DNA from: Pseudobdellovibrionaceae bacterium
GTDB lineage: Bacteria > Bdellovibrionota > Bdellovibrionia > Bdellovibrionales > Bdellovibrionaceae
Length of the DNA: 64,000 nt
Direction: 5' to 3'
Assembly: GCA_043730825.1 (NCBI GenBank)
Contig: JAYTJV010000005.1
Location: forward strand, 4,402-68,401
This document shows positions 6,197-41,449 of the stretch, piece by piece (position 1 is the first letter of the stretch; the number at the start of each line of letters is the position of its first letter). The notes under the pieces are model-generated. The model was not told the origin of the DNA and did no database searches. It worked only from the letters and a program-made list of their open reading frames with translations. Made by a program: the position numbers and the translations under genes.

Positions 6197-7826
<1,630 letters not shown>

Positions 7827-10827: not shown

Positions 10828-10850
10828 ATTTCGAATTAGATTTTAATTTC

Positions 10851-10886: not shown

Positions 10887-10894
10887 GCCAGTAG

Positions 10895-11965: not shown

Positions 11966-12015
11966 GAGGAAATCCTTATCAACACAGCAATTCTTGGCAA
12001 GTAGTTTACTCAGAA

Positions 12016-12855
12016 TTAGCTAACGCATTTGATCAATAGCTTAAGAAAGGCTCTTACCATCGGTTTTAGATAAGATTTTCTGTCTAAAAAACCAGCTATG
12101 CGAGGAGAATACTTATAATACTCTTTAACAAAAAGTCGACCATATTTAAAGCGCTTCAGCTTGTGATCTCGAAAGTGTCTCAACATTTGAACCTCCGGAT
12201 GAAGTGTTCCCTCGAAAGCAGACGTTGCAATGAAGCAGCGAGGTCTTTCGTTTGAAGCATTTTTTAAAAACGATTTAAATGCTGTGGGATTTTTAGCTTG
12301 TTTTACGAAAGCTTCTGCGCGCTTCATAATATCTGGAAATATCGGAGTAAATCGAACAAACAGTGCTAATTGCTTGGAAGCAATGGCTTGGCGATCTCCG
12401 TATTTTGAGCTCGTGTCATAGATCCGCAGTAAGTCCCAGTAGACAGATGTCACAACTGTGAGTTCTTCAGTCCGAGCTGATTCTTTGAAATGATCTGGAA
12501 CTAAGTTCTTACCCTTCTCGACATTAAAAACGATTTCTAAAATTTTTAAATATTTTTCGTAAAATATTGCAGCTTCTGAATACTTTTTTTGATTCATCAT
12601 CTGTCGGCCATTTTTCACAAGTGAAACGCGGCCTTTCCAAAGCTGAAGTCGATGCTGGTCTTTTGCTTTTTCTTGCGCCATTAAAATGCCGCCAGCACCG
12701 GCGCCAGAGCTTGCAACTTTGCGAAGATCAGTCAAACACGACATGCAAACTTGCGTTGATGTTGTTTCACCAAGCTCATTTAATCTTTGCAATAAAGGAC
12801 CATCAACTCCGTGAAGATCGATAACTTGAAGGCTGCAACGGGGACAAGTAACCAT
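12016..12855 (-). CDS. hypothetical zinc-ribbon protein with C-terminal CFIATSAF...LRHFRD motif
   Basis: N-terminal CPRC...CMSC Cys pairs, a helical TPR-like middle, and a C-terminal CFIATSAFEGTLHPEVQMLRHFRDHKL segment. Confidence 0.6.
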   Translation of the reverse strand: MVTCPRCSLQVIDLHGVDGPLLQRLNELGETTSTQVCMSCLTDLRKVASSGAGAGGILMAQEKAKDQHRLQLWKGRVSLVKNGRQMMNQKKYSEAAIFYEKYLKILEIVFNVEKGKNLVPDHFKESARTEELTVVTSVYWDLLRIYDTSSKYGDRQAIASKQLALFVRFTPIFPDIMKRAEAFVKQAKNPTAFKSFLKNASNERPRCFIATSAFEGTLHPEVQMLRHFRDHKLKRFKYGRLFVKEYYKYSPRIAGFLDRKSYLKPMVRAFLKLLIKCVS

Positions 12856-20365: not shown

Positions 20366-20522
20366 AAAACCCCGCTTTTCAGATACAAGTAGACTTCAAA
20401 ATTGGGGCCTGACTATGGGCACACTAAAGTGAATTGAATTGACCTGAGCAGACATGCATTGAAAATTCTTCCAGAGTGTAATCTTCTTAGGCGGGTGCAG
20501 ATTTCTTCAAACGAGGTTTCAT

Positions 20523-21197
20523 GTGACATTAGTTAAGCTCACCGGCGTTAAAAAATCATACAAACTTGGCGAGACCGTTGTGCCAGCATTGCGCGGAATT
20601 AACCTCGAAATTAAGGCAGGCGAATTTACAAGTGTTATTGGTGTTTCTGGCTCAGGGAAAAGCACGCTTTTAAATTTAGTAGGATGTTTAGATCAGCCAA
20701 CTGAAGGTTCGATTACAATTGCGGGCAAAGAAATTACCAAGATGAATGAAATTCAACAGTGTGATTTAAGAAACGAAAAAATTGGATTTATCTTTCAGTC
20801 ATTTAATCTTGTTCCAGTCTTAAATGTTTGGGAAAATATAGAGTTGCCGTTGTTAGTGAAAGCAAAACTACCATTGAGCGAAAGACAGAATCGGGTTGCA
20901 ACTGTGATTAAAGCAGTTGGCTTAGAAGAGTTTAAAAAACACCGACCAGATCAACTTTCCGGGGGGCAAAGACAGCGCGTTGCAATTGCTCGTGCGCTAG
21001 TTACGAATCCATCTTTGGTTTTAGCAGATGAGCCTACTGCGAACTTAGATTCTAAAACGGCCCATATGATTTTAGATTTGATGGCAGATTTAAATAAAAC
21101 TCAGAATGTGACTTTTTTATTCTGTTCTCATGACGAAAAATTAATTGGCCGGGTTGGTAGGATTGTTAGAATTGAAGACGGAGTCATCGTCGAATGA
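20523..21197 (+). CDS. ABC transporter ATP-binding protein (LolD/MacB type)
   Basis: Walker [24 protein letters not shown] signature, Walker [12 protein letters not shown] start. Confidence 0.9.
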
Positions 21198-22492
21198 TGT
21201 GGAAATTATCTTTCCGAAATTTATTTCGAAATAAGCGTAGAACGGTTGCTACGGGAGCTGCTGTTATCGCAGGATTTGTCGGATTAACGCTTTTAGGTGG
21301 ATTTATTTTCAGAGTCGAAAAAGGTCTAAGATCTAATTCCGTTTATCTTCAGAATAAAGGTCACGTGACTATTTTTAAAAAAGAGGGTTTGCAAAGATTT
21401 GCAACCAGACCTTCTTTTTACCAGCTAACTTCAGCTGATCAGGAAATTGTAAAAAAATATATTCAGAAATATGCAGATAATATCGAGTGGACCGGAAAAG
21501 CACTAACAGGCGCTGGCCTTATCAGTAACGGAGAAAAATCTGTTCCCTTCATGTCGGTCGGTGTCGACGTGCTGACTTTGGAAAAAAGCTTTAGTCATAC
21601 TGAAGTGACTAAATGGGCTGAAGATTTTTTAACTGAAGACAGTGTCAACTTTAACAACGCTGTAAAAAATGATCCCCTTTCAATTTCAATAACATCAAGA
21701 CTTGGGGAGCTCATCCAGCGAAAAGCTCCGTTTGAACAATTGCCTATCGAACAAAGATCTGTGCAACTAGCGGGAATGAATTTCTACGGAGATTTAAATG
21801 CAATTGATGCTACACTCACAGTTAATCATTCAACAGGCTCAGAACTTTTAGAAGACGCTGGTCTGCTGGCGCCCTTTGAGCTTTTGCAGGAACTTTACAG
21901 CACTGATGGTGCGCATTACCTGATGATTTATCTAAAAGATGATTCCAAAATTTCAAATATCGTTCGGGAATTAAATGAGACATTTAAAAAAGAAAATTTA
22001 CCATACGATGCTTACCCATTTGACGATCCGGCAATCTCACCAAATTATGTGGGTTCAATGGGTTTTTTATATGCAATGACAGGATTTTTTATTTTTCTTA
22101 TTTGCGGAGCAGTAGCTTTATCAATCGTGAATTCTTTGACAATGGGTATTTTGGAAAGAACGCGTGAAATTGGTACTTTCCGGGCAATTGGTTATAGACC
22201 TTCGCAAATTTCTTGGATGATGACACAAGAAGCACTCTGGCTATGTGTTTTAAGCGGTGTTATTGGGGTTATACTGGCAGCTATTATAGCTGTTATCGTT
22301 AATAGTATGCACTTTACATTTTCCCCGCCTGGCATTGCTGCAGCTCTTCAATTTACCTTGTCAATTAATGCAGTTTTAGTTTCGATTATTACATTCTTGT
22401 TTCTATTATTAGTTGGACTGACCTCTTACCTTGTAACTCACTTTAAACTTAAGATGAAAGTCGTAGACCTTTTATCTGATTCGGGGGCATAA
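21194..22492 (+). CDS. ABC transporter permease, FtsX/LolC/E-like (1 of 2)
   Basis: N-terminal TM, a large periplasmic domain, and a C-terminal three-TM FtsX region with the ERTREIGTFRAIGY motif. 4-nt overlap with the ATPase gene. Confidence 0.85.
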   Translation: MMWKLSFRNLFRNKRRTVATGAAVIAGFVGLTLLGGFIFRVEKGLRSNSVYLQNKGHVTIFKKEGLQRFATRPSFYQLTSADQEIVKKYIQKYADNIEWTGKALTGAGLISNGEKSVPFMSVGVDVLTLEKSFSHTEVTKWAEDFLTEDSVNFNNAVKNDPLSISITSRLGELIQRKAPFEQLPIEQRSVQLAGMNFYGDLNAIDATLTVNHSTGSELLEDAGLLAPFELLQELYSTDGAHYLMIYLKDDSKISNIVRELNETFKKENLPYDAYPFDDPAISPNYVGSMGFLYAMTGFFIFLICGAVALSIVNSLTMGILERTREIGTFRAIGYRPSQISWMMTQEALWLCVLSGVIGVILAAIIAVIVNSMHFTFSPPGIAAALQFTLSINAVLVSIITFLFLLLVGLTSYLVTHFKLKMKVVDLLSDSGA

Positions 22493-23233
22493 ATGATAAA
22501 AAATAATTTTTTTAAAACAATCTTTGCTGTAGTTATTTTTTCAGGAACGGTGTTTGCACAAGTGGATCTGGAACTTTTAAAGGCATCAGACCGTGCTCGT
22601 GGAAGTTTGGAAGGCGGACTGACTTGGGAAAGTGAAGTCACAACTGTCGAAGACGGGGAATCTTCAGTTCGAAAATTTAAAGTTCGAGCCAAGGGTGTTA
22701 ATGCAAACGTTGAAGCTCTAGAGCCTTCACGCAATAAAGGTGAGATGTATTTATTCAATGATCGCACAATGTGGTTTTTTAAGCCGTCTTTGAAAAAGCC
22801 AGTTGCGATTTCTTCCCGTCAGAAACTAACGGGCCAAGCAGCGATCGGTGATATCGCGTCTACTCACTATGCCCGGGACTATACGCCGACAATTGAAAAG
22901 ACCGAGACCATTAACGGAGAAAAAGTATACGTCCTGATGTTGAAAGCGAAAGCTAACAACTTAACCTATGATCAAATTCGGTATTGGATCTCTGATAAAT
23001 CAAAGCGCGCAATTAAGGCCGAGTTTCTAACTTTGCAAGGTCAGCCATTTAAAAGAGCAACTTTAGAATACGCTAATAAAGTAACAGTTAACGGTAAGGC
23101 TATAGATTTCGTTAGTAAAATGGAAATCGTTGATGCGAAGTTTGAAAATAACAAATCAATCCTTCGCTATATCAGTCCAAAATTAGAAGAGCACAAAGAA
23201 ACAATCTTTAACGTGAACAATTTGAAAAGATGA
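22493..23233 (+). CDS. LolA-like outer-membrane lipoprotein-sorting protein
   Basis: Signal peptide plus the pattern ...GEMYLFNDRTMWFFKPSLKKPVAISSRQKLTGQAAIGDIAS..Y, which I recognise from LolA-like 'lipoprotein-sorting' proteins encoded beside FtsX permeases. The ATG immediately follows the upstream stop. Confidence 0.7.
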   Translation: MIKNNFFKTIFAVVIFSGTVFAQVDLELLKASDRARGSLEGGLTWESEVTTVEDGESSVRKFKVRAKGVNANVEALEPSRNKGEMYLFNDRTMWFFKPSLKKPVAISSRQKLTGQAAIGDIASTHYARDYTPTIEKTETINGEKVYVLMLKAKANNLTYDQIRYWISDKSKRAIKAEFLTLQGQPFKRATLEYANKVTVNGKAIDFVSKMEIVDAKFENNKSILRYISPKLEEHKETIFNVNNLKR

Positions 23234-24552
23234 AAATACTAGCTGCTATAGCTTTTAGAAATGCATTTAAGAACTGGCGACATAGCCTTGCTGCCATTAT
23301 TTCTATTTCAGCAGGCTTTCTGTCTTTGGTTCTTTTTCAAGGTTACATTACGGATGTTAATCACATGTACGAAGAAGGCTACACTCATCGTGCAATGTAC
23401 GGTCACTTACTTATTGAAAACCCCGAGATTCAATCAGCAGAAGGCCGTGCAAGATCAGAAGACTTCTTAATTCCGATTGAAGAACAACAAAAGGTTAATC
23501 AGTTTTTAAAGGAAAACGCTGCAGATGTTAAAGAAACAGTTCGTTTTTTGCCAGCAACGGGAATGGTTACAAACGGTAAAAATTCGTTTATTTTTGTGGC
23601 CATGGGTTATGATATTGATGCTGGCGCCATAATGAGAGCACCAAATTGGACTTGGGAAACTCTTTATGGGGTTCCGCTTCATGTTGCGAAAGATCCTCAA
23701 GGTGTGGTCTTAGGTCAATCATTAGGATTTTTGCTTGGTTGTGTTGCTGTAAAAAAAGATACAACGATGGTTCAAAACTCTGGATACGTTCCAGAAAATA
23801 GGCCTTTCCAGTGCCAAAGAAGTTCAATCCAAGTTTCGGCCAACACTGTAACTGGTCAATTGAATGCTCTCGACCTTAATGTCGTTGGATTAATTGATGG
23901 TGGCTATAAAGATATTGATGAAAAGTGGATGAAAATTTCACTCGAGAATGCGCAGATGCTTTTGAATACCGATAAAATCAGATTCCAATCTGTCTTATTA
24001 AAAAACGATAGCAAGATGGATCAATTTGTTTCTAAATTTAATGATTTTTCAAAAGCCCAAGGTTTAAAGCTTCACGCAATTAAATGGTATGATCATAAAA
24101 TTGCTGATCTTTTCAAACAGACAAAAAGTTTACTGGGGATTTTTCAAACGTTTATCGTAACTGTTATTCTAACGATCGCATGTCTTTCAGTTTTGAACAC
24201 GGTAGTGAAAAGTGTAAAAGAAAGAACGCGAGAAATTGGAACATTAAGAAGCATCGGCTTCACGGGTCGACAAGTGGGACTTATTTTTTCGATGGAAGCT
24301 TTGTACCTTAGCATGATGGGAGTAGTCGTTGGTGCGACTGTCGCGATTATCACAACTTTTGCAATTAACCAGGCTGGAATTTTATATCGTGCGGGATTGT
24401 TATCTGAACCTATTATCTTTAGAATCGGTTATGATTTTAAGGCTTACTTACTTTGTACAGTATTACTTGGAATTCTTTCTGTTCTTGCCAGTCACTTAGC
24501 TGCCAAGTCGACAGTTCGAGCTCCCGTTTCCCAGAACCTTACACATGCATAA
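23230..24552 (+). CDS. ABC transporter permease, FtsX/LolC/E-like (2 of 2)
   Basis: Same architecture as 21194-22492, with the ERTREIGTLRSIGF motif. 4-nt overlap upstream. Confidence 0.85.
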   Translation: MKILAAIAFRNAFKNWRHSLAAIISISAGFLSLVLFQGYITDVNHMYEEGYTHRAMYGHLLIENPEIQSAEGRARSEDFLIPIEEQQKVNQFLKENAADVKETVRFLPATGMVTNGKNSFIFVAMGYDIDAGAIMRAPNWTWETLYGVPLHVAKDPQGVVLGQSLGFLLGCVAVKKDTTMVQNSGYVPENRPFQCQRSSIQVSANTVTGQLNALDLNVVGLIDGGYKDIDEKWMKISLENAQMLLNTDKIRFQSVLLKNDSKMDQFVSKFNDFSKAQGLKLHAIKWYDHKIADLFKQTKSLLGIFQTFIVTVILTIACLSVLNTVVKSVKERTREIGTLRSIGFTGRQVGLIFSMEALYLSMMGVVVGATVAIITTFAINQAGILYRAGLLSEPIIFRIGYDFKAYLLCTVLLGILSVLASHLAAKSTVRAPVSQNLTHA

Positions 24553-25798
24553 ATTTTTATATTTTTTCTTATTATTTTGGTCTCATTTTGCATTAGCGGA
24601 AAATACTTACCGCTTTGATATTTATGGCTCTAGCACATTTAGGACTTGGAACGAAGATTCTCCGTTTAACCCGAATAATGTATTGGGCGCTCCAACTTGG
24701 ACGCATACTTTAGAAATGCGACCTGACTTTCAGTTTAACTTGACCGAAAAGCATTCACTTGTTTTGAGGTCTCGCCACTTTTTACAAAGTTTTGAAACTG
24801 AATTTACCAAACCTGATAGGAAACGTTCTACTCAAGACGAAGATTCAGATTTAAGCGATTTGTTTTTTTCTTCAAGCTGGTCAGATTCATTTGGTACTAC
24901 AGTTGGCCTTCAAAACTATCAGTGGGGACCTGCGGAAATATTTTCTCCGTCAAATCCGTTCTTTCACTTTGATACGAATCAAAGAAGTTTTTTCTTCAAG
25001 GAAAAAGGCCGGGCACTTGTCCGGGCAAATTGGAATCCCGATCCAAATTCAAACCGTTGGTCTGTTGTTGGAATGTATGAACCTATAGACAACAACACCA
25101 GGTTTTGGACCGCAGACCGAGATTTTGATCCGCGCTCTGCTTTGAAAGTTGAGTATCAATTTGAAAATCCGGCAAACGCTTTTGCATTTGTTGGGGGTCA
25201 AGGTGAATACATGCGAGGATTCATCGGCGAATATTTTACCTGGTCATGGACAGAGGGCATTTCGTTATACGGGGATATGCAACACCGGCAGGGTCGAACG
25301 AATTACGTGCCCCAAAGAAACACATTCGGAGCTTATGATTTAGTCGAGGCAGATGATAACCAAGTTTATTCTTTGGCGGTTTTAGGATTTCGCTGGGAAG
25401 GCCGAGTTGATTTCAGGCAGGAGTTTATCTTAAACGAAGCAGGCTATGATTCTGACGAATGGAAACAGGTAAGAAGATCCGCCACAACACTTTCTCCGAA
25501 TCTGCTGACGAACGTAGGTCGTTTTGCATCGCCAGGTTTGGAATTTCGCACTCAAACTTATTCTTATACGTCATTAAGGATTCCAGACTTAGGCGCAAGC
25601 AAGATGGCAAGCGTCGGTGCTAGGTGGTTATCAAGCTTAGAACATTTTTCCTCCGTTATACAATTAAACTACGAGTACAATTGGAATGATCACTTGGTGA
25701 TTTCTTTAGAAGGTCTGCAGTTTATGGGTAGCGATAATAGTGAATTTAAAATTGTCGATAATCAGCAAGCCTCAATCGGCTTTCGCTGGAGTTATTAA
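24545..25798 (+). CDS. predicted outer-membrane beta-barrel protein of the export module
   Basis: Signal peptide MHKFLYFFLLFWSHFALA, aromatic-rich beta-strand-like sequence, C-terminal IGFRWSY. 8-nt overlap with the upstream permease. Confidence 0.55.
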   Translation: MHKFLYFFLLFWSHFALAENTYRFDIYGSSTFRTWNEDSPFNPNNVLGAPTWTHTLEMRPDFQFNLTEKHSLVLRSRHFLQSFETEFTKPDRKRSTQDEDSDLSDLFFSSSWSDSFGTTVGLQNYQWGPAEIFSPSNPFFHFDTNQRSFFFKEKGRALVRANWNPDPNSNRWSVVGMYEPIDNNTRFWTADRDFDPRSALKVEYQFENPANAFAFVGGQGEYMRGFIGEYFTWSWTEGISLYGDMQHRQGRTNYVPQRNTFGAYDLVEADDNQVYSLAVLGFRWEGRVDFRQEFILNEAGYDSDEWKQVRRSATTLSPNLLTNVGRFASPGLEFRTQTYSYTSLRIPDLGASKMASVGARWLSSLEHFSSVIQLNYEYNWNDHLVISLEGLQFMGSDNSEFKIVDNQQASIGFRWSY

Positions 25799-26763
25799 GC
25801 TTTTAAAATTTTTGTCTTTAATTCTGCGATAATTTCTTCGGCAACTATCTTGCTTTGTTTATTACAAATGGCCGGGTGCACTTTGATCGTGATACTTCGA
25901 TTTCCACACCATTCAATTGTTGTGATGCCAATAGGGTAGGCATGAGATCCTGGCGGAGCAATAACCCAGTTGCGGTCTTTTACGGAAGACATCATAAGTG
26001 GTTCTTGATCCCAAACTCCCAAGTCTGAAAAACTTCCCATCCAAAATGAACGATTAGTCCCTTGTTTTACTAGCCAGCGCATTCCATTTAACCCAACCCA
26101 TCTTCCGATATGAGCCAGTTCCCAGAAAGCCCAGTATACGCCAGCTTTGAGATCAGACTTATATTTTTCGAAAGACCGTTTTACTGCTTCAGGATTATTT
26201 ATTCCAACAAGCTCAGTTGGAATAAAGCTAACAAAGTTCTGCCCAGCTGGTGCATTTGGGAAAGCTCCGCGCAAATCAACTGGCGAAAGCCATACGCCTT
26301 TATCTTGCGGGTTTTTATAAAGCTTTAGTTTAATAATTTGATCAATCTCTGAAACAATAAAAAAACTTAAATTTAAGCTTTTCGATTTAGCCAACGTCTT
26401 TAATTTTTCATTTTCGCCAATAGTTAAAAACCAATAACTAACTTCATCAGGTTCACCTGATTGAGTACTAATTGAAAAATGCTTCCATGGATTGTGCGGA
26501 AGACGAGGGTGAATCAAAAGACCTTTTAACAAAAGATAGAAGTGAAGAAACGAAGCTGGCTTTTTCAAATGCCTTATTGGTGCCTTGATTTCAATTCCTT
26601 CTTGCTGAAGAAGAGATTGAATTTTTCCAAACCCATCAGCTTCCCGGTGATGAAAATGAACTTTTTTGAAAGTTAGGCCCTTATCCTGATACATCATCGT
26701 GGCCATGTCGGATTGGCCCATTTCGGCGCGAATCTCAAACCATTTTGCGGCCCAGTCGATCAT
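25795..26763 (-). CDS. hypothetical protein with HHxxxDG acyltransferase-type motif
   Basis: VHFHHREADGFG contains HHxxxDG, the catalytic motif of condensation / WS-DGAT / PapA-type acyltransferases. The motif sits unusually close to the N-terminus (about residue 37). 4-nt overlap with the upstream gene. Confidence 0.55.
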   Translation of the reverse strand: MIDWAAKWFEIRAEMGQSDMATMMYQDKGLTFKKVHFHHREADGFGKIQSLLQQEGIEIKAPIRHLKKPASFLHFYLLLKGLLIHPRLPHNPWKHFSISTQSGEPDEVSYWFLTIGENEKLKTLAKSKSLNLSFFIVSEIDQIIKLKLYKNPQDKGVWLSPVDLRGAFPNAPAGQNFVSFIPTELVGINNPEAVKRSFEKYKSDLKAGVYWAFWELAHIGRWVGLNGMRWLVKQGTNRSFWMGSFSDLGVWDQEPLMMSSVKDRNWVIAPPGSHAYPIGITTIEWCGNRSITIKVHPAICNKQSKIVAEEIIAELKTKILKA

Positions 26764-27896
26764 AGAAATCCCACCTCAAGGTGAGAAAAGTCATTTATTT
26801 CGCTAAATATCGGTGACGTCTTTTCTGTGGTCACTTTATAAAGTGCACCTTCAATAGATGTAACAAGGTAACCTCTTTTGCTAAGGGGTAGAGGTTCTTG
26901 TTCTGGCTTATCCCAACGATTAATTGAAAGAATACTAAATTGTTTTTCTTTCGGTAATTGATTGTTCTGATACCAAAAGTGATCTGCAAACTGCATTAGA
27001 TGGTTATCATCTTCATTCGTAAAAGACTTAAATAGCATGAGTTGAAGAATTTCGATTGGCTCGTTTAATTTGACACTTCGTTTACCAAAAAGCGGGAGAA
27101 GGCCTGCCATAAAGTTTAAATAAGCTGGCCACTTCTTGATCAGAGTCTTCTTAACCTTAGATGTTAAAGCTGGAAGTACGAACGCTTTTGCGATTCCATT
27201 TTCTTCTAAAACTTGAAAATCTTTAAAGTTTTTTTGAAAAACGCCAAGCGTGCGAACCAAATCAGATTCAATCCAGCTTAATTTATCTTGGTTACATAAT
27301 ACTTTTATCACTGTGGGAATTTCTGATTCCTTTACTTGCCGGATCGTTGATTTAGGCTTTGAAAGCGGTTTCCAGCGCCCCCAGATCGAGTGCGATTGAT
27401 AAGTATTAGCAATGTCATAACTAAAATCACCAGGCCGCTTTTTCTTAATCAAGGCTTTCTGTGCAAGTTTATTTTCATTCCAAACAAGAGTAACAAAACC
27501 GATGCAGCCACCGAACTCTTCAATTTCAGGCGAAAGTTCAACTCCGTGGCCATAAAATTTCCGCCACTGGAGGCGGGCGTCTCGGTCTAACTGCGGAGTT
27601 GTTCTTAGGTCGCTGGTGTAACCAATTGATATCGGCAGACCGTTCCAGCAGAGTTTACGAAACGTTGAAACGGCGAAGCCGTGTGGCGTTCCATCCTTAT
27701 TAACAAAGACAAATACAAAAGCCCGATCTCCCTGGGCGTCTAGAAAATAATAAAAGTCAGGTTTTCGATCAAAAGATATTTGGAGTGCTTCAGAACTGAT
27801 AGAGGTCTGATCAATAAGCGAGAAAATAGCATCCTGTTGGCTTGGATCTGCAATTTTCATTCGTGGATATTGATCAAGAAGCTCCTGAAATTTCAT
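26760..27896 (-). CDS. hypothetical protein (no motif recognised)
   Basis: 378-aa ORF translationally coupled on both sides within the operon. Soluble-looking. Confidence 0.55.
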   Translation of the reverse strand: MKFQELLDQYPRMKIADPSQQDAIFSLIDQTSISSEALQISFDRKPDFYYFLDAQGDRAFVFVFVNKDGTPHGFAVSTFRKLCWNGLPISIGYTSDLRTTPQLDRDARLQWRKFYGHGVELSPEIEEFGGCIGFVTLVWNENKLAQKALIKKKRPGDFSYDIANTYQSHSIWGRWKPLSKPKSTIRQVKESEIPTVIKVLCNQDKLSWIESDLVRTLGVFQKNFKDFQVLEENGIAKAFVLPALTSKVKKTLIKKWPAYLNFMAGLLPLFGKRSVKLNEPIEILQLMLFKSFTNEDDNHLMQFADHFWYQNNQLPKEKQFSILSINRWDKPEQEPLPLSKRGYLVTSIEGALYKVTTEKTSPIFSEINDFSHLEVGFL

Positions 27897-28933
27897 TAAC
27901 CTTGTATAACAGTATTATAGAAAATTTCAAAGCCCTCCTTGGGGGTTCTGACAACTGTCTGTAAATACGGATGAGCTTCATCTAGCTGTAGTCGTAAATA
28001 CTCGTGTGCGGCCTGCAAATTGTAATATGGAATCTGAGGCGCTAAATGGTGCAGTGAATGATATTGCATTCCTGCAGGTGCCCAAAGGAAAGATAGAAAT
28101 TTCTTTTCGATAGTAAATGAATCTCTTAACTGAGCGAGTGGCGTAAGCATTTCTCCTGGATTGTCGTACCTGTGCGCAATTCGGGCTCTCCAAACATTTA
28201 CGAAAGCGCCCACAACCATTAAAGAAAACCAAATAAGAACGAGTTCAGGCTTAACAAGACCTGTCGCCACTAAAGCAACTTGGCCTACGAAGAACAATGC
28301 GCACAAATTCTCTTCCATGCGAGATTGTTTTGATTCTTCTTCTTCAGGTAAAAGTCTAATGTATTTTGGATTTACAACAATTGTTGATGCCCTTTGAAAT
28401 ATCGCAAGCCTCCACTTTTTAGGGAATGCCCAAGAAATTATCGGTAAAATTCCAAAGCGAAGAATTAAAAGTAGTGGAGAAAGTAATCCAATTAAAAACG
28501 GCTTTAAGAGCGTCTTTGTTCCAGAGCCTTTTAGATAAGCGTATTCAGGGTCTTGAGCAGTTCCAAATGTATTAGGTAGGTGGTGGTAGCGGTGTGGATC
28601 GTGAACGAAAAATGGAATTCGGCAAGGAAACCCAAAAAACAAATTATAGAGTAATCGGTAGCCCTTTATTTTTTTATTAAAGTGGACAACTTCGTGAATA
28701 AACATCAATCCACGGTAGAAAGCCGAGTAAGAAATCACAACTAACAAAAGTTTTGCTATAAGTGGAATAGATTCAATTTGAAGAGAAAAAAACGATAACC
28801 ATGCAACAAAACCCGTAACACTCAAATCTAAGTAGAATATTACGGGTTTGATATTAAAAAACGGTTTTAATTGCTCGAGTAGGCTGCGGACGATTTCCCG
28901 CTCAGTTGAATACTGGGACTTGTTCGAGTTCAT
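27896..28933 (-). CDS. membrane fatty-acid desaturase family protein
   Basis: Three histidine boxes in canonical order, HEVVH, HRYHH and HSLHH, with flanking hydrophobic TM segments. Confidence 0.85.
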   Translation of the reverse strand: MNSNKSQYSTEREIVRSLLEQLKPFFNIKPVIFYLDLSVTGFVAWLSFFSLQIESIPLIAKLLLVVISYSAFYRGLMFIHEVVHFNKKIKGYRLLYNLFFGFPCRIPFFVHDPHRYHHLPNTFGTAQDPEYAYLKGSGTKTLLKPFLIGLLSPLLLILRFGILPIISWAFPKKWRLAIFQRASTIVVNPKYIRLLPEEEESKQSRMEENLCALFFVGQVALVATGLVKPELVLIWFSLMVVGAFVNVWRARIAHRYDNPGEMLTPLAQLRDSFTIEKKFLSFLWAPAGMQYHSLHHLAPQIPYYNLQAAHEYLRLQLDEAHPYLQTVVRTPKEGFEIFYNTVIQG

Positions 28934-29579
28934 GTGCAGCTTCCTGTTTTCTGTAAGCTAAGCGCTTACGAAATAAACGTTTACCCAAGAAGCGTGCAAC
29001 ATAGGCTGGTTCTCTATAAAAAGCTCGAATAACTGCATGAATTGAACCCATTTCAACAATCTCTGTAGCTTGTTCAGTCATGCCTGGAATAAAGACTACG
29101 CCTTCGAAAATTCTGCAAGGTTTACAAATACTGTACATTTCTCCGAGCTTCTTTTTAGAGGCATCGTAAGAGTAGAGAAGGTACGACTTCCCTTTGATTG
29201 TCTGAGCAACAAGGTCCATGAAGAGTCTAAGCCAGAATTTTGCACGGAAAGTGCCATTCTTTAACATGGGATGAATCCAAAGACCTGTTAGTTCAAAACA
29301 CTTATCTAGTTTTTCTTGAAGTTCCTTATGATCCTGAACGATAGCTTGAGGAAGTTGCTCGAGAACTCTGAAGGGGCCTTTAAGCGCAACAATATAACCA
29401 CCGAACATAGACTGAATATCTCCATCATCGTTCTCTGTAACAAGGGCTACAACCTTAGAGCGCTTTAAATAATCGAGTGGATATTCAACGTCGATATAAC
29501 GTTTCGTGAATGTGCTGTAAGCAATTAAGTGAGCATCGCTTGTGATTTCGCGAAATATAATCGGTGATTTCTGAGCCAT
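28902..29579 (-). CDS. hypothetical protein, first gene of the sigma-54 operon
   Basis: 225-aa ORF with GGGGGAGA Shine-Dalgarno 5 nt upstream of the ATG at 29579. Overlaps the desaturase start by 32 nt. No confident family assignment. Confidence 0.6.
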   Translation of the reverse strand: MAQKSPIIFREITSDAHLIAYSTFTKRYIDVEYPLDYLKRSKVVALVTENDDGDIQSMFGGYIVALKGPFRVLEQLPQAIVQDHKELQEKLDKCFELTGLWIHPMLKNGTFRAKFWLRLFMDLVAQTIKGKSYLLYSYDASKKKLGEMYSICKPCRIFEGVVFIPGMTEQATEIVEMGSIHAVIRAFYREPAYVARFLGKRLFRKRLAYRKQEAAHELEQVPVFN

Positions 29580-29625
29580 TTTGTCTCCCCCATTTAGCCA
29601 TTCCTTAGGCTACTTATTGACAATA

Positions 29626-29640
29626 GCAACGAAAGTGCCA
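29626..29640 (-). promoter_or_regulatory. sigma-54 (-24/-12) promoter
   Basis: The minus strand reads TGGCACTTTCGTTGC, which matches consensus TGGCAC-N5-TTGC with correct GG-N10-GC spacing. The GC lies 47 nt upstream of the ATG at 29579. Confidence 0.6.
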
Positions 29641-29764
29641 GTCAAGATTTCGTCAGCGCGGTTTTATTTGATTACATCGGGGCCAAATAGGCACCAATGA
29701 GATGAAATCCGAACTAAGTTGTAATTATCTCTCGGTAGATGCATCTCGATAATGAAAGAAATAA

Positions 29765-30889
29765 TTAGAGTGATTCTTCGCTTTCCTTGAAAAGTTCATC
29801 GGGAATAACACCGGTAAGAATTGCTTGAGCTACTTTCTTATGATGTTCACTACCTATTATTTCCAGAGCGTCCACTAGGGGCATCGGATCTGGATTTTTT
29901 ATTTTATCTAACTTGAATTGCAAAATCCTCTTATATCCAACTTCGATTGAATCTCTGTTCAAAGGACCGTTGGCTGCTGCATCCACTAATGCGTCAATTG
30001 CTCGCATTGGAGCATCGGGCTCGTTACAATAAAGTAATATATCATTACCTGCTTTTAATGCCTGAATTGCAATTTCTTCGGTAGTGAATTTATTTGTAAG
30101 TGCCTTCATTCCGAGATCATCAGTAATTACTAGACCTCGATACCTACAAATATCTTTGAGAACTTTTTGAATCATAATCTCTGACAAAGAGGCCGGAAAA
30201 TTTGGATCAATTTTCGGATATAAAATGTGAGACATCATACAGAGCTCCACTCGGGATCTGAATGATTTTTTAAAAGGTTGAAGCTCTACTTCATCGAGAC
30301 GCTTTAAATCTGAATCTTCGATGGGAAGTGCTTCATGGCTATCAAGCAAAGTATTACCGTGACCAGGGAAATGCTTCACGCAGGCAATGACATCGGATTT
30401 AAGTAATCCGCGAACTAGCGCAGAAGCGTGTTTTGCGACCATGTTTGGATCAGAGCTGACTGCGCGATCACCGATGACAATATTTTTTGGATTCGTAAAA
30501 ACATCAATACAAGGAGCGTAATCCAAATTAATTCCCACTGCGTTTAGTTCGGAACCTAAGCAATGACTAAATTGAAAAGATAAAGTTGAGTTATCAATAT
30601 CACCAATTCTTTTTACCGGAGGCCAGATTGTAAACGGAGCTTTTAGGCGGGCAACACGGCCACCTTCCATATCGATACTGATAAAAAGTGGAGCTTTGTC
30701 AGCCATTTGATGGCGAAGAGACTGAATTTCACTACAAAGTTCGTGAAGTTGTTTTGGATCTTGAATATTTCGAGCGAACAAAACAACGCCGCCAATATTG
30801 TTTTCAACAATAAAAGATTTTTCAGCAGTCGTTAGCGCAAGACCTGAAAGTCCAATGATCATGTGCTGACCCAAAATAGTTTGAATCAA
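29765..30889 (-). CDS. nagZ: beta-N-acetylhexosaminidase (GH3)
   Basis: GH3 signature VKHFPGHGNT and overall NagZ-like length and layout. Confidence 0.85.
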   Translation of the reverse strand: MIQTILGQHMIIGLSGLALTTAEKSFIVENNIGGVVLFARNIQDPKQLHELCSEIQSLRHQMADKAPLFISIDMEGGRVARLKAPFTIWPPVKRIGDIDNSTLSFQFSHCLGSELNAVGINLDYAPCIDVFTNPKNIVIGDRAVSSDPNMVAKHASALVRGLLKSDVIACVKHFPGHGNTLLDSHEALPIEDSDLKRLDEVELQPFKKSFRSRVELCMMSHILYPKIDPNFPASLSEIMIQKVLKDICRYRGLVITDDLGMKALTNKFTTEEIAIQALKAGNDILLYCNEPDAPMRAIDALVDAAANGPLNRDSIEVGYKRILQFKLDKIKNPDPMPLVDALEIIGSEHHKKVAQAILTGVIPDELFKESEESL

Positions 30890-31806
30890 GAACCCTCCTT
30901 CTTTTTTGGAGGAGAAATAGGTTCTGGGTTTTGTCCTTTAATCATAATGCCTTGGCCCGGTGCAACGCCTTGTTGTTTTCCAGCTGCAGGAGTCGCTTGA
31001 TCAATTGTTTTGAAATATTGAGTGACCACGTTTTTGTCGCCAACTGGAACTGAGCCAAAAATACTTTTTGCAACAGATTCAGGTAAGCCAATTGTTCCAA
31101 TTGCGTCAGCAGCTTTGGGAACAAGTTCACTTGTGATGCGCGCATCTTTTACTTCTGTGGCTAAAGCTTCGCCTTTATCATTTACGAAACTGATAAATTT
31201 ATTTTTCTTAAAAGTGTTTTCGACTTTGAAAGAAGTAAAACCTTTATACTTTTCTTCCTTAAGAACTTGGGCTTTTCCAGATTCGATTGTGCCGTCTTCT
31301 TCTGCAATTGCGGAATAATCGTAATTCGAATTAGTCTGAATTCCGCTAGGAGAACGTAACATTGTATAAACCAAGAATGTGCTTAAAAAAGTTCCAGGCT
31401 TAAGATCATTCTTAATCGAGACATCTTTTTTGCCAGTCTCTTTCACAGTAGCTGTCATTTTTTCTTTGGTAAATTTCGCATCAACCGTCTTAGACTGTTT
31501 TCCACCCATCAAAGAAGTGTACTTGTAAGAAACCGGATTTAAAGTTTCATCAGCCGTCGCCACAAGACTTTCCATCACTTCAGTTCCACCAGTAGAAATT
31601 CGAGTCATCTGTTGTGATGTAAACTTTTTTTCTTTTGGATTAAACTGATAGCGGATGACAGAATAACCGATGTGTTGATCACCGGAAGTCACTTTGTAAT
31701 ACCCTTCGAACAGGGTATTCGGATCAATTGTATTGGCAAACGCAAATGGAGTTAAAACAAACAACAAAAAATTAAATAGAAGAACGAAAATTAAGCTCTG
31801 GACCAT
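30886..31806 (-). CDS. secreted hypothetical protein
   Basis: Signal peptide ...LFVLTPFAFA. 4-nt overlap with nagZ. Confidence 0.6.
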   Translation of the reverse strand: MVQSLIFVLLFNFLLFVLTPFAFANTIDPNTLFEGYYKVTSGDQHIGYSVIRYQFNPKEKKFTSQQMTRISTGGTEVMESLVATADETLNPVSYKYTSLMGGKQSKTVDAKFTKEKMTATVKETGKKDVSIKNDLKPGTFLSTFLVYTMLRSPSGIQTNSNYDYSAIAEEDGTIESGKAQVLKEEKYKGFTSFKVENTFKKNKFISFVNDKGEALATEVKDARITSELVPKAADAIGTIGLPESVAKSIFGSVPVGDKNVVTQYFKTIDQATPAAGKQQGVAPGQGIMIKGQNPEPISPPKKKEGS

Positions 31807-31938: not shown

Positions 31939-34122
31939 ATGAAGTTTAAGTTTCTACGAAATAATCGGGGACAAGTTGCTATCTTCATAGCACTGATGTT
32001 TCAGGTTCTATTTTTATTTTTTGCAATGATCGTAAACGTTGGTTTACTTGTTCACCATAAAATCAATCTGCAAAATTCAGTCGATATCGCCGCTTACTAC
32101 GGAGCTTCAAAACAAGCTGAAGTATTGAACGCGATTTCGCACGTGAATTATCAGATCAGGCAGAGCTGGAAACTTTTGGTTTGGCGGCAGAAAGTTTTGG
32201 GGACCGCGGGGATTGATCGATCGACTCCAATGTTTCCTTACGGGAAACTTCTAAGCGGCCAATCTCCCGATGAGGTGTTGGCTGGAATTACTGGAGGTAA
32301 TGTCGGAACCAAGGTTTTTCAATTGCCTACTTTTTGCATTTCCTATGCACCACATGAAATTAATGGCAGCTCCAATACAACTGAAAATTCCTGCAGGTAC
32401 ATGCACAACGCCACCGTCGTAGATTTACCCCGTGCGAATATTCTTTCTCTTCCGTCATTTATTAGCTTTGGTTTTGCTGTATCTGCGGCCATTACTCAAG
32501 CCGCACAAAGCGCTTTTGATCGATGTGCCGATACAGGTGCTCTGAATTTTATAATGGGTGGAAAATTCATTTCGGCACATTACCTTGATTCCATTGAACG
32601 AGCTTTCTTAATGAATTACTTGGCGACGGGATTAAGTTTAGAAGAAAATAACTTTTTTGAATTATCGGGCGATGAAGTTAAAATAGGACTAGAAAAAACT
32701 CTGAAAAAAAACTTAACTAGTGCAAATAGTTCAACGGTAGAATTTGAGATCTTTAATTCACTCGGTGCAAGCTCTTGTAAAAATTCGAATACCGCAGGTA
32801 AAAATACACCTCAGTGGCTTGTTCCGATAGAAATTTACCCCATATGGCGTTATCTCGATTGCAAAAACAACAATAATACTGCGGCCGGACTAATCGAAAC
32901 AGAATCACGGCAGCTAGTAAATAGCATGCTACCAACTCAGTTGAGCGGCGCTAAACCAGACCTGATACAAGGCGTTCAGAATATTGCGAAGAATTTACCG
33001 ATGCGAACGACACTTGTAGGCTTCGAAAAAGACCCGTGGTGCGTGCCTTATGTCGGACTTCGTGCAAAGGCAAAACCGAAGATTCCATTCATGCCGCTTT
33101 CGGAAGTCGAGATAACAGCAGAGGCGTATGCAAAACCATTCGGTGGAAGAATCGGTCCATGGTATGTGAAAGATTGGCCACAAGCAGTAACATCAAATGC
33201 TCGATTGAATTATAAAACGGACGCAATACAAGCGAATGATCAAATCGATCCGATCGGCGGAGTTAGAGTCAGTTCTACTAGTGGAATTACTGGAATTGAT
33301 GATCCTGCCTGGGCTCCGAATATAGCCAGGTTTTTTGGCGATAGATTAGGATTTTCTTCAGAACGAGTGCTTGCTTACTTTCACCGTGCTTTAGTTGGAA
33401 ACAGCTACACTGCGCTTCCGCAAACACCTAACTATCCTTTTCCTGTTTTACCACCTGCTCAAGACTTAAATATCAGTCTTCGATATTATAACCACATATC
33501 GAGCGATTACATAGGCCCAGACAATCCAGATCGCGATCAGCTAACTTGGGATACTATAGGGAAAATGGCGCCGCGACTTAGACTATTAGAAATCGCAGCC
33601 ATTGCGCCAACAATTTATGATTTAGCAAATTACTCAATTGATCCCGATTTTTATAACAACTATTTTCTTCCAATTGAAAAACACATTGCAAAAAGAAACG
33701 GCTGGGATTCCGCTCATCGTTTGCTGGGAGATTACGGCTGGCGCTGGACGGACGAAAAAGCAAAGAAGATGAACATATTTGACCAAATTAAAATTCAACG
33801 AGATGTCGGCGTGGCGGGAGCTCTAGAGTCAGACAGTACGATGCCATATGTAGTAAAGAAAGCGGGACACCTCTTGAACTCATGGTCCGTTGATAACTTG
33901 TTAGATTATCGTGCGAACAGCGTAAAATTTGGAAAATGTTTTTCTCCTGACGATAGTAATTTTGAAACTCCCATGAACCCGCCAACTCCTGGAAATTGTG
34001 TCGATGGTGGTCGTGTGGGAAATTCTGTAAAGCTCGTTTCGAAAGAATGGCTAAAAGCTACGGATTTAGAATTGGGTGGCAATGGACAAACAGGATCAAT
34101 TAGAAACCCACCTCCTTGGTAA
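31939..34122 (+). CDS. TadG/TadE-like (Tad N-terminal domain) large protein
   Basis: The N-terminus NNRGQVAIFIALMFQVLFLFFAMIVNVGLLVHHKINLQNSVDIAAYYGA matches the TadE/G-like pseudopilin-type N-terminal domain pattern. The remaining roughly 650 aa are unassigned. Confidence 0.65.
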   Translation: MKFKFLRNNRGQVAIFIALMFQVLFLFFAMIVNVGLLVHHKINLQNSVDIAAYYGASKQAEVLNAISHVNYQIRQSWKLLVWRQKVLGTAGIDRSTPMFPYGKLLSGQSPDEVLAGITGGNVGTKVFQLPTFCISYAPHEINGSSNTTENSCRYMHNATVVDLPRANILSLPSFISFGFAVSAAITQAAQSAFDRCADTGALNFIMGGKFISAHYLDSIERAFLMNYLATGLSLEENNFFELSGDEVKIGLEKTLKKNLTSANSSTVEFEIFNSLGASSCKNSNTAGKNTPQWLVPIEIYPIWRYLDCKNNNNTAAGLIETESRQLVNSMLPTQLSGAKPDLIQGVQNIAKNLPMRTTLVGFEKDPWCVPYVGLRAKAKPKIPFMPLSEVEITAEAYAKPFGGRIGPWYVKDWPQAVTSNARLNYKTDAIQANDQIDPIGGVRVSSTSGITGIDDPAWAPNIARFFGDRLGFSSERVLAYFHRALVGNSYTALPQTPNYPFPVLPPAQDLNISLRYYNHISSDYIGPDNPDRDQLTWDTIGKMAPRLRLLEIAAIAPTIYDLANYSIDPDFYNNYFLPIEKHIAKRNGWDSAHRLLGDYGWRWTDEKAKKMNIFDQIKIQRDVGVAGALESDSTMPYVVKKAGHLLNSWSVDNLLDYRANSVKFGKCFSPDDSNFETPMNPPTPGNCVDGGRVGNSVKLVSKEWLKATDLELGGNGQTGSIRNPPPW

Positions 34123-39731: not shown

Positions 39732-41312
39732 TTAGCGAGCGAGCTTTCGTTTATCGAGGCCGTACTTTTCGACCTTCATGATGAGACCTGCGCGGGAAAT
39801 ACCTAATTCTTTTGCAAGTTTAGATTTGTTCCAGCCAGTGCGACGTAATCCTTCGCGGATCATTTCGCGTTCTAAATCTTCCAATGCATCTTTTAACTTA
39901 CCTTGTAAACGAGCGCCTTGAACTTTTGTTTTTTCCGAAGACTCTAAGATCTTACCAGAAAGATGTTCAGCCATAAGCTTAGTCTCTTCGCCAGATAGAA
40001 CAAACAAGCGCTCAATTTCATTTTGCAATTCTCGAACGTTACCTGGCCATGCGTAATCATAAAGTTTTTCCAAAGCACGCTTTGTTAAAACTTTTTTAGA
40101 CGCTGTCGGGTGAACATCATGAAGTTTAGCTAAGAAAAATTCTACTAGATAAGGGATATCTTCTTTTCTTTCCCGAAGAGGTGGAACGCGAATGTTGATG
40201 ACATTCAAACGGTAGTACAAATCTTCTCGGAATGTACCAGCTTCAACCATCTCTTTTAAGTTTCTATTTGTAGCGGCAACGATTCTAACATCAACGCGCC
40301 TAGCTTCTGTTGCTCCGACCGGAGTAAATGTTCCTTCTTGAAGAACGCGTAGAAGCTTTACTTGCATCTGCGGAGAGGTATCACCGATCTCGTCTAGGAA
40401 GAATGTTCCTTTATCAGCGATTTCGAAAAGACCTTTTTTATCTTTAAGAGCGCCAGTAAACGAACCCTTCGTGTGACCGAATAATTCTGATTCTAACAAG
40501 TTATCATTAAAAGCAGAACAGTTCTGAAGAACAAATGGTTTGTCATGGCGATGAGAGTTATAGTGAATCGACTTTGCAATCAATTCTTTACCAGTTCCAT
40601 TTTCACCCTGAACCATAACTGTTGAATCGGCACCTTTAATTTTATCTAATAAGGCGTACAAAGATTGCATAGGCTTAGATTTACCGATCATGTTGTCGTA
40701 CTTAAATCTGTTACCTAATTCTTTGTTCAATTCCTGAATTCGGATTTCACGAGAAGAAATCTCTACGTGAAGGGTCACGATCTCTTGAGCTACTAATTCA
40801 CAAAGTTCGCTGAAGTGAGTTCTGTCGTAATCACTTAGACATTTTACCTTGCCCATACCTTTTTCAATCATGTCATTAGATAAGCCAAATGCAGCCCATC
40901 TTTCACGGATTTCTGTGAAACGATTTGAATCGGCTGGATCTTTTAAAAATCCCATCGCAACAACTGTTCCAACCATGTCGTTTTCGATCATGATAGGAAA
41001 AATTCCTACGTCAAAGCCAGTAACATCCCACTTTTTAATAGCGAAATTATTTTGCGATACTCTTAATTCATCAATCGTCTTAGCGACTAATTCGCCAATC
41101 CCTTGTTGCGCAGACTCTTTCGAGCAATAAAAGCCAACAGCTGGATTGCAGAATGCCTGCTTGCCACCATCGAAACCTTTTAGCTGTCCACGTTCGTCGG
41201 TGAAAATAACATCGATATTCCACCAAGTGTTGAGGATTTGCTTTAACTTTTTGATCACATGTATATGTTCAAATTCATCCCAATTGATCATCGACATATT
41301 CAACTCCCTCAT
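39732..41312 (-). CDS. sigma-54-dependent transcriptional activator with PocR-like sensory N-domain
   Basis: AAA+ core GENGTGKELIAKSIH, ESELFGHTKGSFTGA (GAFTGA variant), GTFFLDEIGD, VRIVAATNRNL. C-terminal Fis-type HTH NKSKLAKELGISRAGL. The N-terminal roughly 190 aa resemble a PocR domain (conserved FC...C pattern). Confidence 0.9.
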   Translation of the reverse strand: MRELNMSMINWDEFEHIHVIKKLKQILNTWWNIDVIFTDERGQLKGFDGGKQAFCNPAVGFYCSKESAQQGIGELVAKTIDELRVSQNNFAIKKWDVTGFDVGIFPIMIENDMVGTVVAMGFLKDPADSNRFTEIRERWAAFGLSNDMIEKGMGKVKCLSDYDRTHFSELCELVAQEIVTLHVEISSREIRIQELNKELGNRFKYDNMIGKSKPMQSLYALLDKIKGADSTVMVQGENGTGKELIAKSIHYNSHRHDKPFVLQNCSAFNDNLLESELFGHTKGSFTGALKDKKGLFEIADKGTFFLDEIGDTSPQMQVKLLRVLQEGTFTPVGATEARRVDVRIVAATNRNLKEMVEAGTFREDLYYRLNVINIRVPPLRERKEDIPYLVEFFLAKLHDVHPTASKKVLTKRALEKLYDYAWPGNVRELQNEIERLFVLSGEETKLMAEHLSGKILESSEKTKVQGARLQGKLKDALEDLEREMIREGLRRTGWNKSKLAKELGISRAGLIMKVEKYGLDKRKLAR

Positions 41313-41449
41313 TGTATAGCTGACTAATTACAGTACACATATCGTCCAATCTTTTGACGGACTTTACGGTTGAAGGGAAAATGCTGTCGTTTTTCTGGTC
41401 AATTCTATAATAAATCTGAAGAGTGTTTCAATCCGAAACGCGACCTGTA

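Follow-up and report, generated by a model that had tools for sequence, protein, structure and literature searches.

A conserved sigma-54-type operon of a Bdellovibrio-like bacterium as a candidate route to an exported acyl-amino lipid

The routes of amino-lipid synthesis listed in a 2026 review are those of OlsBA, OlsF and OlsH only (PMC12971839). A bacterial tandem-GNAT enzyme, NpuN, moves long acyl chains from acyl-CoA onto a lysine of a ribosomally synthesized and post-translationally modified peptide (RiPP) (PMC13060382). Other described systems with which the locus studied here invites comparison are the N-acyl amino acid synthases of the FeeM type (PF21926), which have a GNAT fold and are related to the LuxI synthases of acyl-homoserine lactones, the N-myristoyltransferases (NMTs), the condensation superfamily and the LolCDE-LolA transporter. 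We describe four minus-strand genes, g1 to g4, and a convergent export module in a 64-kb window (the whole stretch of DNA analyzed; all coordinates are window positions unless a locus is named) from a Pseudobdellovibrionaceae bacterium, a Bdellovibrio-like organism. A sequence-only reading of this DNA had found no fit to the ornithine-lipid, sphingolipid, wax-ester or lipid A schemes, and on this point our sequence searches and the literature agree with it; searches of the literature for the LolA_like/FtsX module, TP0789, PF17131 and desaturase-GNAT fusions returned nothing describing the g1-g4 system. Our results suggest that an activator-gated sigma-54 operon makes an acylated amine or amino-acid-type lipid and that a Lol-like module moves this product from the inner membrane, a proposal to which we would give roughly even chances. 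The best reading of the product class is a lipoamino acid or a small lipopeptide-like amphiphile.

The coordinates of the four genes (Table 1) were reproduced, with overlaps of 32 nt for g1/g2, 1 nt for g2/g3 and 4 nt for g3/g4 in the open reading frame (ORF) list of the window, in agreement with the tight coupling that had been claimed for them. Searches with single sequences and with profiles gave no Pfam, NCBIfam or PDB sequence match for g1, g3 or g4, and every NCBI copy of these three that was checked is named "hypothetical protein." All three are without hydrophobic segments and are predicted to be soluble, g1 having a basic C-terminal tail. Among 5.8 billion protein clusters searched by a word index, only 35, 19 and 30 were homologous to g1, g3 and g4, respectively.

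The loci of relatives (designated by L numbers) were mapped by tblastn and with hidden Markov models (HMMs), and 12 independent loci had enough flanking DNA for the pairing of g1 and g3 to be counted. The two genes occur together in 12 of 12; g3 follows g1 in 11, and in the twelfth it lies upstream within the same cluster. Genes g1, g3 and g4 are directly adjacent in L007 (84% identical in g1), L006, L002/L008 and L009, and the same trio is found beyond the Bdellovibrionales in Desulfatitalea (L010), in a metagenome-assembled genome (MAG) of the Bdellovibrionota (L014) and, arranged as g3-g4-g1::desaturase, in L018. The g1-g3 pair stands without g4 in L011, L016, L020 and L022; L011 has a desaturase::g1 fusion with g3 (hhalign probability, 99.6%), and L022 has the order desaturase-g1-g3. 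Five lineages have a fused or adjacent desaturase, and four have g4 (Bdellovibrionales, L010, L014 and L018). The conserved core is g1-g3, to which g4 and g2 are optional additions, and the window holds the fullest version. The four-gene operon of the sequence-only reading stands as regards its genes and their coupling; the conserved unit is the smaller g1-g3-g4, with g1-g3 as a deeper core and the desaturase as an accessory. Conservation over the range of 95% to about 55% protein identity extends to the order of the genes, their translational coupling and the -24/-12 element, and the g1-g3(-g4) arrangement is kept in other phyla at 20 to 36% identity. A pattern scan of 185,579 species genomes (one genome per species) found close relatives of g1 in only six, all of them MAGs, and no representative that has been cultured or studied by experiment is evident.

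The -24/-12 element upstream of g1, TGGCACTTTCGTTGC, has its GC 47 nt from the g1 ATG. The exact consensus occurs once in the 64-kb window against an expectation of 0.09 from dinucleotide-preserving shuffles. When the DNA upstream of g1 was aligned for five Bdellovibrionales lineages (from MAGs; their proteins are between 95% and about 55% identical to those of the window), the core ACTGGCAYTTNCRTTGCT was invariant while the flanks diverged. The motif TGGCAY-N5-TTGCT has a sole match in each orthologous locus (approximately 10 to 20 kb, the g1 upstream region included), and this match always lies 35 to 47 nt before the g1 start. Exact consensus, phylogenetic conservation and the presence of a sigma-54 activator gene in the same window all favor the sigma-54 promoter that had been claimed, and a sigma-54-dependent reading of the g1 promoter is well supported in silico. 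The activator is an enhancer-binding protein with a GSFTGA variant of the GAFTGA loop and a weak PocR-like sensory region, and it is possible that it regulates one of the two sigma-54 promoters of the window. No rpoN gene was seen within the 64-kb window.

Further upstream of g1 lies a partly conserved element, GGTGCCTATTTGGCCC (also written GGTGCCNATTTGGCCC), with a G, G, C, C and A that do not vary across the five aligned loci. The full motif is common to the window, L005 and L006; L002 and L009 have GGGGCCAAAACGA instead. This element could be a site for an activator or for integration host factor. A palindrome, AGATGCATCT, which is present at positions 29737 to 29746, had been proposed as the site for an enhancer-binding protein. 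This palindrome carries no weight because perfect 10-bp palindromes number 76 in the window; moreover, the 95%-identical L005 has only a broken form of it (AGACACATCT), and L006, L002 and L009 lack it. Being neither significant nor conserved, it was rejected as an enhancer site. A near-copy of the promoter, TGGCACTTTCCGTGC, is present inside g1 (positions 29242 to 29256, minus strand), with the same TTTC start of the spacer and one mismatch to the consensus. It falls within the codons for the conserved NGTFRA segment of g1, approximately 310 nt upstream of the g2 start, and is probably coincidental, though it could drive the desaturase gene from within g1.

When 1.84 billion representatives were searched exhaustively by HMM, the family of g1 comprised 295 representative clusters. 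E96 and G160 are invariant across 117 aligned members, and the family is marked by the motifs PFRVLEQLP, ELTGLW and YSYDxxKxxLG. Six representatives are desaturase::g1 fusions (P0122, P0127, P0157, P0159, P0165 and P0182), and one, P0201, has the reverse domain order, g1::desaturase. No member reaches any Pfam or NCBIfam threshold (117 members were scanned against Pfam), and none of the 117 matches Autoind_synth. Among some 24 weak Pfam matches of these members, 6 fall in the GNAT clan (Acetyltransf_1, _5, _10 and _15 and FeeM), with E values of 3.8e-4 for Acetyltransf_1, 0.037 for FeeM and 0.033 for Acetyltransf_5. The GNAT clan makes up, by estimate, well under 1% of Pfam models, and given this estimated size, a share of 6 in approximately 24 is far above chance. 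A FeeM-like profile, made from the FeeM protein of L009 and three plasmid-borne relatives, was matched by hhalign to the g1 family with a probability of 71.6% (E = 3.5e-5, 130 columns), and in this alignment the Glu of the FeeM "AEVxxLA" strand pairs with the invariant E96. With the single FeeM sequence the probability was 61%, E values across both comparisons being 3.5e-5 to 8e-5. A crude propensity profile of g1 is compatible with the GNAT topology beta1-alpha1-beta2-beta3-beta4-alpha3-beta5-alpha4-beta6-beta7. These comparisons suggest that g1 is a remote N-acyltransferase of the FeeM/GNAT type, an assignment that is probable and not proven. That g1 might be a stray copy of a g3 domain was ruled out, as hhalign of g1 against g3 shows no relationship. 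A tblastn search of a plasmid collection with g1 and g3 found nothing.

The FeeM gene of L009 has the ABC/LolA-like module of that locus on one side and its g1-g3-g4 operon on the other, and a gene for a receiver/cyclic nucleotide (cNMP)-binding regulator (L009 positions 8896 to 9672) comes after it, directly upstream of g1. A FeeM-like protein 41% identical to that of L009 is encoded on plasmid pBdHAGR2 of a cultured Bdellovibrio, Bdellovibrio sp. HAGR004 (L025; AP029178.1, positions 46765 to 48012), where it is annotated as hypothetical and adjoins a glycosyltransferase. Annotations may understate how common N-acyl amino acid chemistry is in the Bdellovibrio group.

The AF2 model of g3 (pLDDT, 86.7) was matched by Foldseek to human, fungal and Plasmodium NMTs with E values of approximately 1e-10 and TM scores of 0.52 to 0.54 over some 390 to 400 columns, and also to the Eis-like tandem GNATs 2hv2 and 2i00. 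By its predicted structure, g3 has the fold of an NMT-like tandem GNAT. No Pfam model matched it at an E value of 1 or less, those for NMT, NMT_C and GNATs included. A YxxDLR motif, N142, A145 and Y166 are invariant in homologues down to approximately 20% identity, and all of these homologues end exactly four residues past a conserved [FL][ED] motif. In NMT and Eis, the C-terminal carboxylate serves in catalysis. The fixed C terminus of g3 is consistent with what a mechanism of this kind predicts, and by analogy g3 probably uses its C-terminal carboxylate as a base. Neither g1 nor g3 had been given a recognizable motif in the sequence-only reading, which is superseded on this point by the remote FeeM-like GNAT signal of the one and the predicted tandem-GNAT fold of the other. 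The g3 homologue of L014 (positions 5994 to 7269 of that locus) is split by a frameshift, due to either a sequencing error or a pseudogene. An 80-aa ORF of L014, considered as a carrier protein or precursor peptide, is the frameshifted N terminus of this g3 and was rejected.

For g4, the AF2 model (pLDDT, 90.7) was matched by Foldseek to the C, Cy and E domains of nonribosomal peptide synthetases (NRPSs), PapA5, PapA2 and AzeD (E approximately 1e-8; probability, 1.0; TMq, 0.46 to 0.65), and the predicted structure is two lobed and CAT-like, with a condensation/PapA5 fold. The motif HHREADG occupies residues 38 to 44. All 17 close homologues have H39, R40, D43 and G44, while residue 38 varies among H, P and R in them; three remote homologues (24 to 27% identity), from Desulfatitalea and two further lineages, also keep H39, D43 and G44 without exception, the first His of the motif being H, P, R, Y or S overall. 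The earlier claim of an HHxxxDG acyltransferase was thus right in substance, with fold match and conserved His and Asp in its favor, and the loss of these residues in homologues, which had been named as a refutation, did not occur. The position near the N terminus, noted before as noncanonical, holds for all homologues: the motif is at residues 38 to 44 and not at the canonical N-lobe position (residues approximately 125 to 150). The protein is a shortened member of the superfamily from which approximately 90 to 100 N-lobe residues are missing. No Pfam or NCBIfam model matched g4 at an E value of 1 or less, including Condensation, PapA_C and WES_acyltransf; the remote homologue in L018 matched PapA_C with an E value of 7e-4 and 19.5 bits, below the cutoff of 30. 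A 403-aa protein is encoded after the Desulfatitalea trio (L010, positions 4459 to 5670, plus strand), with HHATMDG at approximately residue 130 and no Pfam match, and may be a second, full-length condensation-like acyltransferase.

The membership of g2 in the membrane fatty-acid desaturase family, as read earlier, was upheld by a match to PF00487 (FA_desaturase; E = 3.3e-24; 86.5 bits against a cutoff of 29.7) and by the three His boxes HEVVH, HRYHH and HSLHH, at residues 80, 114 and 292; the protein has approximately five hydrophobic segments. It could be placed in no characterized subfamily (NCBIfam GntB, 35.9 bits against a cutoff of 380; DesA, 26.6 bits against 500), and no PDB sequence match was found. 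Mapping of the loci by tblastn and HMM showed that g2 is absent from L002, L006, L007, L008, L009 and L010; among Bdellovibrionales loci, only the lineage of the window and its 95% relative, L005, have it. Outside these, g2 is 49% identical to the desaturase that follows the g1 homologue in L013. It is an accessory insert of the cassette. Recent horizontal acquisition is not supported, the GC and GC3 contents of g2 being the same as those of its neighbors; because of this shared composition, gain and repeated loss are both possible. L022 contains, besides desaturase-g1-g3 (positions 7105 to 10606 and 10696 to 12060 for the set), another FA_desaturase gene in convergent orientation and a gene resembling those of copper type II monooxygenases; their presence suggests that oxidative tailoring is heavier in this lineage.

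Convergent to the operon is a module of five genes for an ABC transporter ATPase, two FtsX-type permeases, a LolA-like periplasmic carrier and a secreted orphan of 417 aa (Table 1). The carrier has an N-terminal, signal-like hydrophobic segment at residues 6 to 28. The 417-aa protein, a putative outer-membrane beta-barrel, has no Pfam or PDB match, and the stop of its gene overlaps that of g4 by 4 nt. Its gene is conserved in L002, L005, L007 and L009 and absent in L006, where g4 directly abuts the gene for FtsX permease 2 (L006 positions 12769 to 12777); because of L006, the putative outer-membrane component must be dispensable or encoded elsewhere. The ATPase gene is syntenic with g1-g3-g4 in L002, L005, L006 and L008 and is nearby in L009, in which the module is 3.4 kb from the cassette. 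The convergent arrangement is kept in L002, L005, L007 and L008, as well as in L006 minus the 417-aa gene, and two unrelated lineages have other FtsX-type ABC systems convergent to the cassette, namely, L016 (ABC-FtsX-MacA-like) and L018 (an 853-aa FtsX protein with an ATPase). It can reasonably be argued that the exporter belongs to the acyltransferase system, a part that the sequence-only reading had missed, together with the 4-nt overlap with g4. A sigma-70-like promoter of the exporter operon was found at positions 20439 to 20466; shared sigma-54 control is not supported, this promoter being the only one found for the exporter operon.

Table 1. Positions of the promoter elements, genes and predicted products discussed in the text (window coordinates except for the last row)
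Feature	Position	Strand	Length	Description
g1	28902-29579	minus	225 aa	soluble; remote FeeM/GNAT-like putative N-acyltransferase
g2	27896-28933	minus	345 aa	membrane di-iron fatty-acid desaturase/hydroxylase family
g3	26760-27896	minus	378 aa	N-myristoyltransferase-like tandem GNAT (predicted fold), fixed C terminus
g4	25795-26763	minus	322 aa	shortened condensation/PapA5-fold acyltransferase (predicted fold), xHxxxDG at residues 38-44
-24/-12 sigma-54-type element TGGCACTTTCGTTGC	29626-29640	minus		exact consensus TGGCAC-N5-TTGC
g1 Shine-Dalgarno GGGGGAG	29585-29591	minus		direct sequence reading
Partly conserved element GGTGCCTATTTGGCCC	29680-29695	minus		approximately 40-55 nt upstream of -24 box
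ABC transporter ATPase	20523-21197	plus		PF00005, E 1.5e-37
FtsX-type permease 1 (LolC/E or MacB-like)	21194-22492	plus		PF02687, E 2.8e-15
LolA-like periplasmic carrier (outer membrane lipoprotein-sorting protein family)	22493-23233	plus		PF17131, E 1.3e-31
FtsX-type permease 2	23230-24552	plus		PF02687, E 1e-14
Secreted orphan	24545-25798	plus	417 aa	signal-like N terminus, C-terminal ...FRWSY
Sigma-54 enhancer-binding protein	39732-41327	minus		Sigma54_activat, E 4.4e-70; HTH_8
Second sigma-54-type element TGGCATTGAGATTGCT	50526-50541	minus		31 nt upstream of ATG at 50495
FeeM protein of L009	L009 6857-8131	plus	424 aa	FeeM N-acyl amino acid synthase domain PF21926, E 4e-39

The pathway that we propose would be activator gated because it is sigma-54 dependent. 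Acting as a distant GNAT of the FeeM/LuxI type, with Glu96 at the position of the FeeM Glu, g1 would N-acylate an amine from an acyl thioester. The acyl chain of its product might then be desaturated or hydroxylated by g2 where this is present; the repeated fusions in both domain orders are the reason for supposing that g1 and g2 act on one substrate. A further fatty acyl group may be moved from acyl-CoA to an amine by g3, with NMT-like chemistry, and an additional ester or amide bond could be formed by g4 via His39 and Asp43. The export module would extract the product, whose destination would be the outer membrane or the cell surface. With neither a carrier protein nor an acyl-activating enzyme among the genes, general acyl-CoA or acyl-acyl carrier protein (ACP) pools would be the acyl source. 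A coupling in which hydroxylation by g2 is required for O-acylation by g4 was rejected; this logic is unsupported because g2 and g4 do not covary. The conditionally expressed pathway for tailoring lipids or N-acyl compounds that had been read from the sequence was largely right, given the corrections made here for the palindrome, the smaller core and the inclusion of the exporter.

Several observations weigh against this proposal. The assignment of g1 stands on a moderate profile match only; the fold similarities of the g3 and g4 models are likewise moderate (TM approximately 0.5), and the fold families concerned also include proteins that are not acyltransferases, such as epimerases and dehydratases. 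No product, substrate or carrier protein was identifiable, and the cluster has neither an ACP nor an acyl-activating enzyme. There is no sigma-54 site at the exporter operon, and no exporter is adjacent in L011, L014 and L020. Lastly, most Bdellovibrionales have g4 but no g2, and L011 and L022 have g2 but no g4.

Other explanations of the locus share parts of this evidence. One is that g3, aided by g1 and g4, acylates the N terminus or a lysine of a peptide or envelope (lipo)protein and that the Lol-like module sorts the product. The fold nearest to that of g3 is a peptide N-acyltransferase, NMT, and the bacterial tandem GNAT NpuN uses acyl-CoA to acylate a lysine of a RiPP; lipoprotein trafficking, moreover, typically involves LolA-like and FtsX components. 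However, the 12 loci show neither a small ORF conserved as a precursor nor a RiPP maturase or a protease, and the g1::desaturase fusions point to the chemistry of lipid chains rather than of proteins, so that we regard peptide lipidation as unlikely. A diffusible signal is another candidate, with g1 as a LuxI/FeeM-type synthase of an N-acyl amino acid or a related autoinducer that g2 to g4 tailor and the ABC system secretes. The enzymes of the LuxI/FeeM group are typically approximately 200 aa long, like g1, and the remote similarity of g1 to FeeM-type synthases, the conditional sigma-54 control and the adjacent exporter would all fit such a role. Yet no gene for a LuxR-type or other receptor is conserved nearby, the g1 family is without a match to Autoind_synth, and three enzymes with acyltransferase folds together with a LolA-like carrier for hydrophobic cargo suggest a bulky amphiphile that is retained in the membrane; a signaling function therefore seems improbable to us. 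Both explanations are made less likely by the fact that no gene for a precursor peptide, a maturase or a receptor is conserved.

It could also be argued that the locus remodels existing envelope lipids, by re- or transacylation of phospholipid, lipid A or an amino lipid in a sigma-54 stress or developmental program. The cluster has no acyl-activating enzyme or carrier, so preformed lipids or general acyl-CoA/ACP pools are needed; the desaturase family includes acyl-lipid desaturases, and a transporter directed to the outer membrane is adjacent. Nevertheless, the predicted solubility of g1, g3 and g4, which have no hydrophobic segments, and the fact that the enzymes most closely related to g1 join free amino acids to acyl groups from thioesters are at odds with remodeling, and the rarity of the system (6 of 185,579 species genomes) fits a specialized product better. 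We doubt, therefore, that remodeling is the function. That three of the four proteins are without family annotation might suggest a chance juxtaposition of unrelated hypothetical genes and a promoter-like sequence, but synteny, coupling and promoter conservation effectively refute this, and we consider it very improbable indeed.

Upstream of the operon (positions 31939 to 34122, plus strand, and 29765 to 31806, minus strand) lie genes for a TadE/G-like pilus-assembly protein of 727 aa, a glycosidase of the GH3 family (NagZ-like) and a secreted orphan of 306 aa. Synteny of the last two genes holds in the closest relatives alone, and both are apparently outside the system. The second sigma-54-type element, TGGCATTGAGATTGCT, heads a large minus-strand operon (ORFs 49048-50511, 46124-48853, 43180-46107 and 41450-43180) that runs toward the gene for the enhancer-binding protein.

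Returning to the exported acyl-amino lipid, we tentatively suggest, with somewhat less than even confidence, that the g1/g3 pair is the core of an unrecognized route that is scattered among Bdellovibrionota, Desulfobacterota and unassigned metagenomic lineages; that the acyl-amino lipids or lipopeptide-like amphiphiles made by this route form a new class, exported and delivered to the outer membrane by a dedicated Lol-like machine; and that it employs three enzyme families for which there are no models, among them the smallest known condensation-fold acyltransferase. If this is true, there would be three new enzyme families, one each inside the FeeM-like GNATs, the NMT-like tandem GNATs and the condensation superfamily, with instructive departures in each: the desaturase fusions of g1, the fixed catalytic C terminus of a bacterial NMT-like protein in g3 and a condensation fold minus approximately 100 N-terminal residues in g4. 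The tie between small-molecule acyl chemistry and a Lol-like transporter would offer a testable case of nonlipoprotein cargo for LolA-like/FtsX systems. Bdellovibrio-like bacteria would have a conditionally made lipid of the surface or outer membrane, which could matter for surface behavior or stress adaptation. As a compact cassette of two to four genes, the system should be easy to express in a heterologous host, and its product is within experimental reach.

How far the locus resembles the described systems differs from part to part. Ornithine-lipid pathways (OlsB/OlsA, OlsF and OlsH, with the modifiers OlsC, OlsD and OlsE) likewise combine an N-acyltransferase, a second acyltransferase and a di-iron modifier and yield an envelope amino lipid upon conditional induction; in contrast to these, g1 to g4 have no family-level homology to OlsB, OlsA, OlsF, OlsH or OlsE, and the locus has a dedicated exporter and sigma-54 control. 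The N-acyl amino acid synthases of the FeeM type are like g1 in size (approximately 200 aa), in a suggestive profile match that spans the predicted beta1 to alpha4 core, with the Glu-E96 pairing, and in context, since a true FeeM homologue neighbors the cassette in L009. Unlike these synthases, the g1 family fails all curated models, has different motifs, is often fused to a membrane desaturase and is always paired with an NMT-like protein. To our knowledge, neither desaturase fusion nor NMT-like pairing is among the features of Fee synthases or of those linked to PEP-CTERM.

The two-GNAT-domain fold of the g3 model, with a TM score of about 0.53 to NMT, is shared with NMT and Eis, and the fixed position of its C terminus would be expected if the terminal carboxylate were catalytic as in those enzymes, whereas sequence identity is only approximately 10 to 12% and the classical Q/RxxGxG/A loop is missing, the invariant YxxDLR motif being present instead; unlike NMT, g3 is bacterial and is linked in an operon to a FeeM-like protein. 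With NpuN the resemblance is by fold only, and a long-chain acyl-CoA donor is plausible for g3. The predicted CAT-like fold and the invariant His, Asp and Gly link g4 to PapA5/PapA2, WS/DGAT and the NRPS C domains, and it stands alone like PapA5. It differs from this superfamily in length (322 aa versus approximately 400 to 460 aa), in the position of its His (residue 39 versus approximately 125 to 150), in the variable first His and in having no carrier protein or polyketide synthase (PKS)/NRPS partner. The export module, with one ATPase, two different FtsX permeases and a LolA-fold periplasmic protein, resembles LolCDE-LolA and MacB-type FtsX exporters, but its carrier belongs to PF17131 (LolA_like) and is not a canonical LolA, a 417-aa secreted orphan replaces LolB, and the module is genetically tied to a cassette of small-molecule acyltransferases.

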